Origin: Escherichia phage REP8
Sequence record: OQ174507.1
Strand: one strand, 5' to 3'
Length of the DNA stretch: 64,000 bases
A model generated the notes under the pieces. The model was given only the letters and a program-made list of their open reading frames with translations, did not search any database and was not told the DNA's origin. A program made the translations under genes and the position numbers. The number at the start of each line of letters is the position of its first letter. Position 1 is the stretch's first letter. Positions 18,389-36,584 of this stretch are shown in pieces.

Positions 18389-18925
18389 TCAACTTAGTTT
18401 TGCAAACTCTCCGTGGAGTTTCATAGCAGCTTCACAGTAAGCTTTATGGGCTTCTTCAGGGGTGTCATGGTGACCTAAAAACATCTTCTTACCTTTATAA
18501 CTTATCTGTGCGACCCACTTACCAGACTTCTTCTTAAGACTTACACCCTTGTACCCAGATTTATTGGTGACTGGTTTGCCTTTATTCCAAGCACTTTGAA
18601 AGTCATCTGCTTCCCTTAAGTTTACAATCCTGTTGTCAAGTGAGTCTCCGTTGATATGGTCAATGATACCTTTTGGCATCTTGCCATACACGTAAAGCCA
18701 TGCGAGTCTGTGTGCTTTATGTGCTTTCTTGTCAAAATAGATACTAATCTGTTTATGACCACTTGAATCAGTCTGGATATTACCTGCCACCTTTCCTGCA
18801 TAATTACTGTTAAAAACACTAACAGCTCTTGATTTACCTTCTCTGCGAAGCCAAGTAAAGACCCCTGTTTCGGGGTCATAGTGTAGTAGCTCCTTTAAAC
18901 GTTTTTGTGAAATAAAATCCATCAA
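18389..18925 (-). CDS. HNH homing endonuclease with AP2-like DNA-binding domain
   Basis: HINGDSLDNRIVNLR HNH motif plus YKGVSLKKKSGKWVAQISYKGKKMFLGHHDTPEEAHKAY AP2-like segment; starts immediately after the polymerase stop codon. Confidence 0.65.
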   Translation of the reverse strand: MMDFISQKRLKELLHYDPETGVFTWLRREGKSRAVSVFNSNYAGKVAGNIQTDSSGHKQISIYFDKKAHKAHRLAWLYVYGKMPKGIIDHINGDSLDNRIVNLREADDFQSAWNKGKPVTNKSGYKGVSLKKKSGKWVAQISYKGKKMFLGHHDTPEEAHKAYCEAAMKLHGEFAKLS

Positions 18926-19482
18926 TCAATGTACCTCATACCAACTCTTACCAACCTTTGCTGTACCAGTTACAAGTGTTTCTTTCTTCAAACCTAAGTT
19001 TTTTGAAGCTTGCCCATACATCCAGTCAGCAATTGCTTTCATATCATGTGTCATATTCTCTGGGCATTCCCAACTATTTTCGTCGTGATATGCCAGAAGT
19101 AGTCTTGCTCCGATAGCTGGTTTTCGAGCATTCAGTTTTGTCAGGCCATCTTCACAGGCTTTTCTTGCTGCTAGGTTGATGGCCTCATTCTGAATCTGTG
19201 CTTCCGAACTCATCAGGAGGTAGTTCAGTAGTTTATGTGGAGATTTGCACCATATCCATGCTCCAGCGACCCTGATATAACCACCCTTAGCAATTGAAGA
19301 ATTCTTCCCAAAAACCTCTTCCAGAGCCTTTTTAGACGCCTTAAAATCGGCTTCTAAGCTATCAAGTAAACTCTTAATCTTCGGTAGACGCATATAGTAA
19401 GTCTGCTTAGTCAATGCACCTTCCTCTGTAGAAGCTGCCTTAATGGTTTTGGCAAACTTCTCATCACCTGCACCGAACAATA
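18926..19482 (-). CDS. DNA polymerase (family A), exon 2 (C-terminal part)
   Basis: FGAGDEK (motif B continuation), LLLAYHDE (motif C), C-terminal ...WYEVH ending typical of Pol A. Confidence 0.65.
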
Positions 19483-19750
19483 CATCTGGTCAATACACTC
19501 GCAAGGTGTACCAGTTCTCTTATGAACTTCTCCGCATTTCTACGGAGTGTCGGACTATATCACGTAGTAGTAATACTACCGTTGCACTTGGGAATGGTCA
19601 TTAGCTTACCACCCTACTCTACTCAGTTCATACATTAAGTATGCTTTTCGATAGTCTCTGAACGTTCCTCTCAAGAGGCTTCGCTGCTGATTACCGTATC
19701 TTCTCAGACTTAGGCTTCCAGCAATTCACAACGTTTTACATGCGCCACTG
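19483..19750 (-). ncRNA. putative group I self-splicing intron in DNA polymerase gene (boundaries inferred, +/- a few nt)
   Basis: 268-nt ORF-less insertion inside Pol A motif B; minus-strand R-like GTTCAGAGACTATCG (19664-19649) and S-like GATATAGTCC (19564-19550); 5' exon ends in U, insertion ends in G; joining restores KNGIYALLFGAGDEK. Confidence 0.55.
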
Positions 19751-21923
19751 ACGCATAAATGCCATTTTTGGCTTTCTTACGACCTTTTGTAATCTCGTGG
19801 AGAAGTTCCTCATCCTGTGTCTCCCTGCAACGAACAATATCCTCTTCTTTGTTAAGACCAAAGTAAATACTGTTCAGTGTATGCGCATCAGTCCCTGTGT
19901 AGACTTCATAGAGGTCGTTCTCAGCATCATAACGAAGATACTTATCAGTTTCTGGATTAAGATACTTATCGAGATGCTTGCAATAGTATCTGCCATCTTC
20001 TTGCTTAGTGAACTCTACTGACTCTTTACCCTCAGTTACCGCTTTGGTGAACTCTTTATCACCCATAAAGTTACAAAGAAGAACAAGCTGTGCAGAGTTC
20101 TGGTCAACTGAAACGATATTAGTCCCTTCCTCGCAAATCCAAACCTCCCTCATAGGCGCTCCATAGACAGCAGCACCAGACGGTACGTTTACAATACCAT
20201 ATTGTGTCATACGTCCAGTTGAAGTACCAAACACCATTGCACCAGCACTAAGGCGACCATCAGGACGAATCTGGTTCAACCAACCTTTTTCATCATCCTT
20301 TGAGTTCTCAATAGTTCTGCGTCGGTGCATCAAAGTATAGTACTTAGCAATCTTCTGTCCAAGCTCACCTTCAATCGTGTCATAAGATGATTCAGTAAGT
20401 TTTGGTGAAGTACGGATTAAGCAAGGCTCAAGCAAATCTGTGTATTTCTTCACAGACCAGTTATGTTCAATGTACTGTACACCTTCATGCTCAACATAGC
20501 TCAAACCACACCGCTCAACCATTTCCTGCCACTTAGGATGCTTTGTAATCATCTTTTTATTGTCTTTGAAACGACAAACTTTAACAGGGCGACCATCTGA
20601 GTCTTTCTTGTAGTTCCAGTCATCTGGAATCCAACCAACTGATTTCAAGTAGTCTTTAACAACTGCTACCTGAGTCATACGAGAAACTTCAAACTCAATT
20701 GGTGTATACGGTGCATCAATCAAACCTGTGTAGCGACTCGACTCAAGCTCAAAGTGGTTAACAACGTGGCTGTTATAGTACTTCACAGTTTTGACTGTTT
20801 TTACTGGCTTCCAGTCTTTGCATTTCTTACCAATCTTTGCGTTCAACTCATTGCAAATTGCACGAGCATCCTTCATTGCTACAAAACCTTCTTTGTACTC
20901 TTCACCAGTTACAGAGTTGGTTGGTGTATAGCAATTCCGCTTTTCAATGTTAAAAATCTTTGTAGTTGGCTTACCAAATGGCTTGATTTCATATGTCTGC
21001 ATCTCACCGTTACGTACCTGTTGACGATACTTTGTCTTAGGGTACTTGGTAATTCTCTTCAGTCCATCTGCATGACCAAATGCTTCAACATACTCATTCC
21101 AAGCTTTTGCAAACTCTTCTCCAGTGACTTTACCTTTGGTCTTAATAGTTGGAGGTAGATGTGGTTCAACCTCTGAAGCAAGCTCATTAGTCAACTTGTC
21201 AAGTTCCTTTACATGGAACTCCATAAGTTCTTTATCAGCTTTCCAGCCATTGATAGCTTGTTGACTCATCCAGAAAGATGTTTCTTTAGCTCGCATGTAG
21301 GTTTCATAGGTGTCTACGCCACACTTCTTTAGCTTCAGATATTCATTATCCAATGCACGTTTAGTTTTGGCGTTGATACGGATATCTTCTACAACACGAG
21401 TGAAGATTTCTGCATTCCACACACCCCAATGTTCAATCTCTGGTTTACGAACACCAACACGAGCACCCCATGCAGCCAAGCCATGAGCACCTTTATAACC
21501 CTTTGGAGTTGGCCTATCCATCCACTGAACACGAGACTGGATAAGAGAATCCTGAAAGAAATTACTCCACGGTTTACACTTTGGATTATCAAAGTTCCAT
21601 AAATCAGGTGCAATGTGATTGAAAACCCACCAGTCATAACCGAGACCGTTATGGATGCAAAGACGTTTTGCCTTTAACGCAAATTCAACACCTTCACGTA
21701 AACCACCCTTGATGTACTTAGTGTACTTGTGACCGAGGATAGGTTCATCTGTAAAGACCCATACAGGTGGCTCTTCATCGTCAGATTTATAGTCTGCGAA
21801 AGCCATTACGTGCACTTTAGTGAACTCAAGAAGTAAACCATCAGTTTCTGTATCACCAACTAAATGTAAGTTTTTAAAATCTACGTTTTCCATTTTTACT
21901 CCCTCTAAAATCATTAACCTCAT
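19751..21923 (-). CDS. DNA polymerase (family A, T7-like), exon 1 with 3'-5' exonuclease domain
   Basis: DTETDG Exo I motif; VSVDQNSAQLVLL motif A; RKKAKNGIY start of motif B; the ORF then reads into the insertion for 12 codons before a stop. Confidence 0.7.
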
Positions 21924-35071: not shown

Positions 35072-36268
35072 ATGAACAAAGTACAGATTATTAAAAAGAA
35101 TGGCTCACTCGAAGAACCTGATATCAAAAAAGTTTTAACAGCAGTCACAAAGTCAGCTAATAGGGTTGGGTATAAAGAACTCCCGCCAGATGTTACCCAA
35201 GCTCTTGAGTCAGCATTTATGAGGGTTCTGGTAAAATCCACTAAGCAGAATAATTTACTCGTTTCAGTAAATGATATTCACAGTATTGTTGAGGGTGCTT
35301 TGGCAGAAGTCAATCACGAGATTTATGAGTCTTACTCAACATATAGAAATTACCGTAAAGAGGTTGCTCAAAACTGGGATGAACTCTACCAGAAGACTAA
35401 AGATACACTCTTCTTAGGTGACCGTGAAAATGCTAATTTTGACAGCAGTTTAATTTCTACGAAAGGTTCAATTATCCGTGGTTACCTGACTAAAGAAATC
35501 TTTAAACAGTATCATCTAACACCAGAGGAACTTGAAGCCATTGAGAAAGGCTTTGTCTATATCCATGATTTAAGAGACCTGATTTTTGGTGGTATTAACT
35601 GTTGCCTGTTTGACATTGGTAAAGTACTAAAAGGTGGCTTTGAAATGTCCGGCATTGAGTACTGTGAACCTAAATCTGTACTGTCAGCGTTGCAGGTTAT
35701 TGGTGACGTAGTACTTTCAGCAACTGCACAGCAATTTGGTGGTTTTACTTTAGCAGAGATTGATAAGGTACTTGTACCGTATGCGAAGAAGTCTCTACGC
35801 TATCATGCTGAGAAAGCATCATCTTATGGTATCCCTAAAGAGCATTACCACAATTATGTCATGGAGCAGCTACAGATTGAACTGACTCAAGGTTTCCAGT
35901 CGCTTGAAATGAAACTAAACACTGTACCTTGTAGTCGTGGGGATTTTGCATTTACAACTTTGACATTCGGGTTACTTGACTCAGACATGTCTAATGAAGA
36001 CAACCGACTGCAATACATGATTGCAAGTACTCTCCTAGATGTTCGTATGAATGGACAAGGTAAGAGTAAGAAGCCTGTTGTATTCCCTAAACTGGTTTAT
36101 ATTTATGACCAGAAGAGACATAATGAGAATATCTGTCAAGGCCACCTGTACAGTAAAGCTATAGAGTGTTGCTCTAAAGCGATGTATCCAGATTTCTTAA
36201 GTGTATCTGGTCATGGTGCTGTAGCAGAAGCTTTTGAGCGTTCTGGTAAGGTTATTTCACCGATGGGT
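35072..36268 (+). CDS. nrdD: anaerobic ribonucleotide reductase, exon 1
   Basis: ORF ends ...VISPMG then TAA; continuation found in frame at 36585. Confidence 0.7.
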
Positions 36269-36584
36269 TAACAAGCTCTATAGCTCATCTAAAACGTGCC
36301 TAAACAGGGAAACTCTACAGATGTAGACAATCCTGTGCTAAATGATGTACGATGTAAGAAACTATACAACATAGGGGTCTTACATGCCAAATAACTTCGA
36401 ATATGAGTTTGGATACATCTAAATGCCGAACGACTAACCGTGATGAATGTAGCGGTGTAGGGTCAAGCGACTCGAAATGGTACGCTACTTAGAAATAAGT
36501 AGAAGATATAGTCTGGACTTACTGGCGACAGTAAGCAGCTTGAATAAAGCGGGGTAAGCGTAGCGAACTTACCTGAACAACAAG
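36269..36584 (+). ncRNA. putative group I self-splicing intron in nrdD
   Basis: 316-nt ORF-less insertion; 5' exon ends in U, insertion ends in G; S-like AAGATATAGTCTGG (36503-36516) and R-like CGAACGACTAACC (36428-36440); downstream frame encodes CRAFLSPYHNEDGEEFYVGRANIGAVSLNLP. Confidence 0.55.

Follow-up and report, generated by a model that had tools for sequence, protein, structure and literature searches.

A predicted ORF-less, IA2-like group I intron within motif B of the family A DNA polymerase gene of Escherichia phage REP8

The 268 nucleotides at positions 19483–19750 (minus strand) of the Escherichia phage REP8 sequence analyzed here, a stretch of 64,000 nt from record OQ174507.1 that we refer to as the window, are best explained as a splicing-competent, ORF-less, IA2-like group I intron in the gene for a family A DNA polymerase, a reading to which we assign a probability of about 0.93. 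The in silico support for this reading covers the fold of the RNA, the boundaries of the insertion, the restoration of the polymerase reading frame, and the polymorphism of the element among related phages. We infer that the intron is spliced and that splicing is autocatalytic; the literature that we searched yielded no experimental splicing evidence for a Felixounavirus polymerase intron.

The window derives from a Felixounavirus. The 3.7-kb stretch around the intron is 100% identical to the corresponding sequence of Escherichia phages REP9–REP12 and 94–97% identical to that of many Salmonella and Escherichia Felix O1-like phages (genus Felixounavirus). The REP9 record lists two “DNA polymerase” CDSs here and, after them, an “HNH endonuclease”, without an intron feature, and most GenBank records of relatives likewise annotate two separate “DNA polymerase” CDSs. 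An earlier reading of this DNA, made from the sequence only, had described the polymerase as two minus-strand ORFs in different frames, and the sequence and the ORF list agree with that description, the ORFs lying at 19710–21923 and 18926–19480. The upstream ORF encodes the exonuclease together with the beginning of the polymerase domain and closes with ...KKAKNGIYA, 13 unrelated codons, and UAA. The stop had been placed 12 codons past KNGIY in the sequence-only reading, which is incorrect; it comes after 14 codons because the upstream ORF runs 13 codons into the intron, and the ORF physically ends at 19710. The downstream ORF opens at ...FGAGDEK, and the TTG “start” assigned to it at 19480 is an ORF-calling artefact. 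The likely start of polymerase translation is at 21893: the ATG there comes with a Shine-Dalgarno sequence, GAGGGAG, and the REP9 annotation uses it as well, whereas the ATG at 21923 is a less likely start. The features of the locus are collected in Table 1.

Table 1. Coordinates of the polymerase exons, the predicted intron with its modeled elements, and the adjoining endonuclease-like gene, in window numbering
Feature	Position	Strand	Description
DNA polymerase exon 1, 2143 nt	19751..21893	-	Last base U19751, which opens the split Leu codon; the ATG annotated in REP9 maps to 21893
DNA polymerase exon 2, 557 nt including stop	18926..19482	-	Begins UA UUG UUC GGU (...L L F G AGDEK); Pfam DNA_pol_A hit over the C-terminal half
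Group I intron, 268 nt, ORF-less, IA2-like (predicted)	19483..19750	-	Starts CAGUGGCGCAU, ends CCAGAUG, omega-G at 19483; Rfam RF00028, 61.7 bits
P1 (model)	19740..19756	-	5' exon AUGCGU (19756-19751) paired with internal guide GCGCAU (19745-19740); U19751.G19745 wobble at the splice site
P10, 3'-exon strand UAUUG (model)	19478..19482	-	5 bp with CAGUG, 19750-19746
P3, 5' strand CGUUGUG (model)	19727..19733	-	Pairs with UGCAACG, 19586-19580
P4-P5-P5a domain (model)	19685..19723	-	P4, 19723-19718 paired with 19690-19685; P5/P5a within 19715-19693; the unconstrained MFE fold agrees
P6/P6a hairpin, CCUC UUGA GAGG (model)	19662..19684	-	Loop is the site of the 537-nt Endonuclease VII ORF insertion in relatives
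R element, GUUCAGAGACUAUCG	19649..19663	-	Holds the P7 5' strand: G93, bulged A94, GACUA = 19658-19652
P7.1 (19643-19629) and P7.2 (19614-19592) (model)	19592..19643	-	Subgroup IA peripheral hairpins; GUA directly 5' of P7.2
P8 hairpin, GUAGUA-UUAC-UACUAC (model)	19564..19579	-	
S element, GAUAUAGUCC	19552..19561	-	Holds the P7 3' strand UAGUCC (19557-19552)
P9 (19547-19530) with GAAA tetraloop and P9.1/P9.1a extension (19514-19486) (model)	19486..19547	-	
Free-standing HNH_3 + AP2 homing-endonuclease-like gene	18389..18922	-	Pfam HNH_3 54.5 bits, AP2 48.9 bits; PHROG 99

On the minus strand, the junction region reads GCG T (19751), then CAGTG...CAGATG (19750–19483), then TA TTG TTC (from 19482). 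When the exons are joined in silico by cutting after U19751 and rejoining at U19482, 268 nt are removed and the sequence becomes GCG U/UA UUG UUC (the slash marks the junction), which gives KNGIYALLFGAGDEK; the exons of 2143 and 557 nt are then in frame and encode a protein of 899 aa. The spliced mRNA is predicted to read ...UAUGCGU/UAUUGUUCGG at this point, and the spliced polymerase to carry the junction peptide NGIYALLFGAGDEK. The joined 899-aa protein scores 53.3 bits against Pfam DNA_pol_A (PF00476), above the threshold of 34.3; exon 1 alone has no Pfam match, and exon 2 alone reaches a subthreshold 25.9 bits for the same family. In a phmmer alignment, GRKKAKNGIYALLFGAGDEKFAKTI is matched to TRDNAKTFIYGFLYGAGDEKIGQIV of T7 gp5 (residues 517–541), and the splice junction falls residue for residue on TRDNAKTFIYGFLYGAGDEK in motif B, with the K..(F/Y)G..YG signature of this motif aligned with K522–K536 of T7 gp5. 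The split Leu codon corresponds to F528 of T7 gp5, between Y526 and Y530 in the motif B O-helix, a position that, by our own residue mapping, we take to lie at about L764 of E. coli Pol I. The resemblance to T7 motif B, which the sequence-only reading had pointed out, is thus real by phmmer, and the placement of the insertion inside this motif was correct. So were the terminal nucleotides that it had proposed, the 5' exon ending in U (U19751) and the intron in G (G19483).

Intronless alleles, in which the two coding segments are contiguous, define the intron boundaries to the nucleotide. With a query of 668 nt (the intron and 200 nt on either side), some genomes, among them those of ULIM9, ECOH1, bumzen, and FGS030, match in two pieces that span exactly 400 nt. 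Exon 1 adjoins exon 2 directly in all 15 of the 15 intronless Felixounavirus alleles examined (bumzen and 14 IMG/VR loci), and bumzen, the sole intronless allele aligned in full, is exactly 268 nt shorter. The boundaries cannot slide, because the first base of the intron differs from the first base of exon 2 and the last base of exon 1 differs from the last base of the intron. All 15 intronless alleles encode EI(T/S)KGRKK(A/S)KNGIYALLFGAGDEKFAKTIKA, which is the predicted spliced product of five intron-bearing alleles. The proposal that joining the exons at 19751/19482 restores the polymerase is borne out here, the restored sequence being the same as that found at the junction of the intronless alleles.

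The Rfam Intron_gpI covariance model (RF00028), a search that the earlier reading had suggested as a check, gives a positive result on the minus strand at 19813–19530, with 61.7 bits (E = 3e-13) over the full model (1–253) and a gathering score of 50 bits. The match is offset from the true boundaries because the P1–P2 portion of the model is forced onto exon sequence and the 3' end stops at P9. A model of the intron from P1 to P10 was constructed manually, with the covariance-model alignment and local folds as guides. All 77 of its 77 pairs are canonical; it lacks P2 and includes P7.1 and P7.2. P1 is the same in all 8 Felixounavirus introns compared, and its loop, CAGUG (19750–19746), is the P10 guide. 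The R-like element GTTCAGAGACTATCG (19663–19649) and the S-like element GATATAGTCC (19561–19552), which had been singled out as able to form P7, do so in the model. This helix consists of G93:C199, the bulged A94, and GACUA/UAGUC, is crossed by P3, and is 100% paired in the Felixounavirus variants; the R element is invariant even when the N4-like relatives described below are included. The occurrence of P7.1 and P7.2 between P7 and P3', together with a GUA-containing linker, is the criterion for subgroup IA2 as quoted in PMC3428280, and from these hairpins and the GUA we describe the intron as IA2-like, an assignment made against that quoted criterion rather than by a formal subgroup classifier. 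An unconstrained minimum free energy fold recovers most helices of the model (MFE −70.7 kcal/mol), with a z-score of −1.49 relative to shuffled sequences that is not significant alone, and thermodynamics was dropped as evidence. There is no intron-encoded homing endonuclease, since 19483–19750 holds no sense-strand ORF apart from exon read-through, and the description of the intron as ORF-less stands.

The pairing scheme was further compared across intron variants. Among 8 distinct Felixounavirus variants, 99.8% of helix cells are paired, as opposed to 25–44% when the partners are slid by 1–3 columns. Two pairs are changed on both sides (C:G to U:A in P6a and U:A to C:G in P8), and three changes on one side only (G.U to G:C or U:A to U.G) are all compatible with pairing. 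Most pairs never vary, because the Felixounavirus introns are 84–100% identical to one another. A more distant comparison is provided by the N4-like introns, for which anchor-based extraction was used because MAFFT misaligned the P7.2–P3'–P8 region; sequence anchors set the register of P3, P4, P5, P5a, P6, and P9. Over 87 helix cells, 58 are unchanged, 22 are changed on both sides, 3 are changed on one side, and 4 are non-standard. In P3, both partners differ at three positions in ZQ2 and Moonfish and at two positions in MIF8; P5, P5a, and P9 covary in this manual alignment as well, and P6a, P7.1, P7.2, and P8 are kept as hairpins of unrelated sequence. Resting on a manual alignment of three related sequences, this cross-family covariation is supporting evidence for the fold and not decisive.

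In the mechanism that we propose, the polymerase gene would be transcribed as a single pre-mRNA, in which the intron would fold into its P3–P9 core. P1 would present U19751 in a U.G wobble pair for attack by an exogenous guanosine bound in P7, and P10 would then position the 3' exon so that omega-G19483 could be displaced. Ligation of the exons would give GCG U/UA UUG and an uninterrupted 899-aa polymerase with its motif B O-helix intact.

Two other explanations were weighed. The 268 nt could be an unspliced spacer, in which case polypeptides of 727 and 184 aa would have to associate, or the gene could be a pseudogene. The paired “DNA polymerase” CDSs in GenBank for REP9 and many relatives and the in-frame TTG at 19480 in exon 2 agree with a split polymerase, and polymerases split by selfish DNA have a precedent in T4-related phages, as cited in a passage of PMC8351571. 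However, the break would fall inside the O-helix, between the equivalents of T7 Y526 and Y530, exon 1 would gain 13 unrelated residues, and the TTG is preceded by no Shine-Dalgarno sequence (GACCAGAUGUA UUG). The supposed spacer is, moreover, a complete group I fold kept by compensatory changes; at least 113 phage records, mostly of propagated isolates, have the intron here, and in intronless relatives the protein is continuous and has the same junction. Taken together, these observations make an unspliced spacer or a pseudogene extremely improbable.

A decayed relic would share the group I fold and differ in activity: it would not be autocatalytic and would need phage or host protein cofactors, or its splicing would be too inefficient to be of consequence and the polymerase would be provided in another way. 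All core helices are nevertheless intact with canonical pairs, and the R and S elements, the bulged A in P7, the omega-G, and the U.G wobble are invariant across variants. The missing P2 and ORF could be taken as signs of decay, as could the unremarkable MFE z-score, but the Pf-WMP3 intron also lacks P2 and yet self-splices in vitro (PMC3428280). The polymerase gene is presumably essential, and the phages that carry the intron are viable. We therefore consider a relic very unlikely and retain the splicing-competent group I intron as the preferred reading.

The Felixounavirus polymerase intron is already on record, and it is of a well-known kind. The Meda genome paper (Neff et al. 2019, PMC6486253) reports that the DNA polymerase gene contains an intron and that this intron has no HNH endonuclease. 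Salmonella phage Meda (MH586731) has the same 268-nt ORF-less form in the same gene and at the same site, with a joined CDS in its annotation; the two introns are 96.3% identical, differing by a few point changes that include a compensatory pair in P8, and the downstream HNH gene of Meda is another allele. For EC6, JH2, and FSL SP-010, Fang et al. 2018 (PMC6083498) list Endo VII (DHHRN) proteins as intron-encoded. These phages have the same ribozyme at the same site, 95–99% identical outside P6a, but with an insertion of 537 nt in P6a where the REP8 copy has a 4-bp P6a with a UUGA loop; unlike the REP8 window, EC6 also has no free-standing HNH gene downstream. The SPJ41 paper mentions “two introns” from an ncRNA scan, and the 2010 genome paper on Felix O1 gives a polymerase of 906 aa and no introns, so that the type phage itself appears intronless.

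Outside Felixounavirus, the nearest relatives of the intron lie in the RNAP2 gene of the N4-like Schitoviridae vB_EcoP-ZQ2, Moonfish, and MIF8. They are 72–79% identical to it over the P3–P9 core, with identical J3/4–P4, P7, and J7.1/7.2 sequences, and differ in the host gene, which encodes an RNA polymerase, in the presence of P2, and in an HNH ORF located 3' of P9. These N4-like introns (L022:460-703, L023:2455-2698, and L024:2455-2702) score 91–94 bits with Rfam, and their records give split “RNA polymerase” CDSs and no intron.

Closer in position is the DNA polymerase intron of LUZ24, a group I intron with an Endo VII-type ORF according to Ceyssens et al. 2008 as cited in PMC6083498. Like the REP8 intron, it interrupts motif B of a related family A polymerase, with U as the last base of the 5' exon and G as the last base of the intron. 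At 669 nt (L033:1216-1884; NC_010325 ~19115-19783), it interrupts AKTFI-Y-AFIYGAGD within the Tyr codon, whose T7 counterpart is Y526 and not F528, and the possibility that the two introns occupy the same site was rejected, the LUZ24 insertion lying 6 nt upstream in the same motif. The LUZ24 intron has no Rfam match at the gathering score and does not occur among the matches listed for the DNA search with the Felixounavirus intron. Further IA2-type introns with P7.1 and P7.2 occur, as in REP8, in the family A polymerase genes of PhiI/W31, Pf-WMP3, SPO1/SP82/Bastille, and phiL7. In these introns the ORF, if present, is in P6a, and that of Pf-WMP3 is without P2 (PMC3428280). They encode HNH endonucleases and their splicing has been demonstrated experimentally, whereas the REP8 intron is ORF-less and its splicing is predicted. 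In E. coli Pol I numbering, they are inserted at 674 (SPO1/SP82/Bastille/Pf-WMP3), 676 (phiL7), and 881 (PhiI/W31), as compared to ~764 for REP8, a site that is not new given LUZ24. The intron itself shows no departure from textbook phage group I introns.

At least 113 phage records, most of them of propagated isolates, carry the intron in the polymerase gene at 80% identity or more; the denominator for these ~113 intron-bearing records is the 205–262 records that hold flanking polymerase sequence. Four allelic states are found in Felixounavirus: no intron, the ORF-less form of 268 nt, an ORF-deleted form of 311 nt, and a form of ~800 nt with Endo VII in the P6a loop. The last is represented by EC6, JH2, FSL SP-010, VpaE1, and others, in which the 537-nt insertion sits in the P6a loop of the same ribozyme, flanked by intron nucleotides 77 and 80; in the EC6-type insertion, the ORF encodes a 160-aa Endonuclease_7 protein (PF02945, 71.4 bits). 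In garuso, Mushroom, and S19cd, the intron is 310–311 nt long, with a long P6a stem retained and the ORF lost (garuso, Rfam 63.3 bits). The REP8 intron is one allelic state of an apparently mobile intron that is polymorphic among Felix O1-like phages.

In VpaE1 (L027:409-869), two overlapping CDSs are annotated where the Endo VII ORF has been disrupted, and the intron measures 780 nt compared to 805 nt. An endonuclease gene in decay fits the homing-cycle model of gain, degeneration, and loss. Felixounavirus polymerase sequence with the intron (95–98% identity) also appears in three records labeled otherwise, MG065664 and MG065668 (Campylobacter phages A132 and A126) and GU169904 (Staphylococcus phage SA1), which are probably cases of contamination or chimeric assembly.

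The exon sequence around the site was compared among alleles. The junction UAUGCGU/UAUUGUU, which matches what P1 and P10 require, is present in 11 of 11 intron-bearing alleles examined. Intronless alleles on the same polymerase backbone differ at 13–14 of 60 nt around the site, relative to a mean of 2.5–3.3 elsewhere, and this intron-plus/intron-minus contrast puts the site in the top 1–2.4% of 60-nt windows. No significant excess of similarity at the site is seen among intron-plus alleles from different backbones, which have 5 differences over 60 nt (mean 6–7) and share identity tracts of 7 nt upstream and 31–34 nt downstream. Because this 60-nt co-conversion test is not significant, the claim is limited to the sharp intron-plus/intron-minus contrast and the short identity tracts. 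The pattern would be consistent with homing and short co-conversion tracts, without proving homing.

Presumably, the only routes by which the ORF-less copy still spreads are passive transmission and the help of an endonuclease acting in trans. The HNH-AP2 gene adjoins the polymerase stop codon and is 557 nt from the intron. Because it directly follows the polymerase gene, the ORF-less intron and this neighboring endonuclease are conceivable as a homing pair. In such a collaborative scheme, the HNH enzyme would cut the intronless motif B site or a place nearby, and the intron would protect its own genome and hitch-hike on the repair; we regard this as doubtful, and the role of the HNH-AP2 gene in it, although conceivable by analogy, is unsupported. 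In the relatives, the HNH slot holds one of three allelic forms (~97%, 85%, and 50% identity) or is empty, independent of the intron state. A strict association of the gene with the intron was rejected: some relatives have the gene but lack the intron, others have the two together, and the gene itself comes in three allelic types. It resembles a homing-endonuclease cassette with a mobility of its own. Recoding of the target site in intronless alleles as a means of resistance to the HNH enzyme was likewise considered and is unsupported: the same tract occurs with two HNH alleles (L019 versus L002), and its divergence is also within the range of other windows.

Free-standing endonucleases beside intron target genes are reportedly represented by T3 gene 5.3 and by F-CphI of a cyanophage. 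The arrangement here resembles that of T3 gene 5.3, in that the HNH gene is directly downstream of the polymerase gene and starts at the polymerase stop codon. Similarity of the Felixounavirus HNH protein to T3 gp5.3 is nonetheless limited to the HNH motif (pairwise E = 0.006), and homology of the two was set aside as motif-level similarity only. If collaborative homing did operate, the Felixounavirus locus would show every stage of the Bonocora-Shub pathway of mobile-intron assembly, namely endonuclease alone, intron alone, intron with a neighboring endonuclease, and intron with an internal Endo VII.

These findings bear on annotation as well. REP9–REP12 and most of the at least 113 records should have one joined 899-aa CDS and an intron feature, and the 2010 statement that the Felix O1 group is without introns fails for the genus. 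The intronless, ORF-less, ORF-deleted, and Endo VII-bearing alleles, together with the polymorphic free-standing HNH gene, form a natural series in easily cultured phages that are therapeutic candidates, and this series is usable for the study of intron gain and loss and of endonuclease turnover.

A second ORF-less group I intron, of 316 nt, was noticed in the window at 36269–36584 (plus strand), where it splits nrdD, the gene for anaerobic ribonucleotide reductase; the Rfam match scores 55.4 bits at 36161–36535. The boundaries of this intron, taken from the intronless VpaE1 allele, are ...CCGAUGGGU/UGUAGAGCG, which restores ISPMG/CRAFL. In other Felixounaviruses the nrdD intron is either absent or carries an HNH homing-endonuclease ORF (+426 nt), and both the Meda paper and the UAB_Phi87 paper refer to the interrupted nrdD and to its HNH gene. 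Vibrio phage 11895-B1 has two Rfam group I matches of 82–84 bits (L025:2403-2682 and L025:3326-3577) in and just before its terminase large-subunit gene; as this gene is annotated as a two-piece join, one of the two introns may be unannotated.
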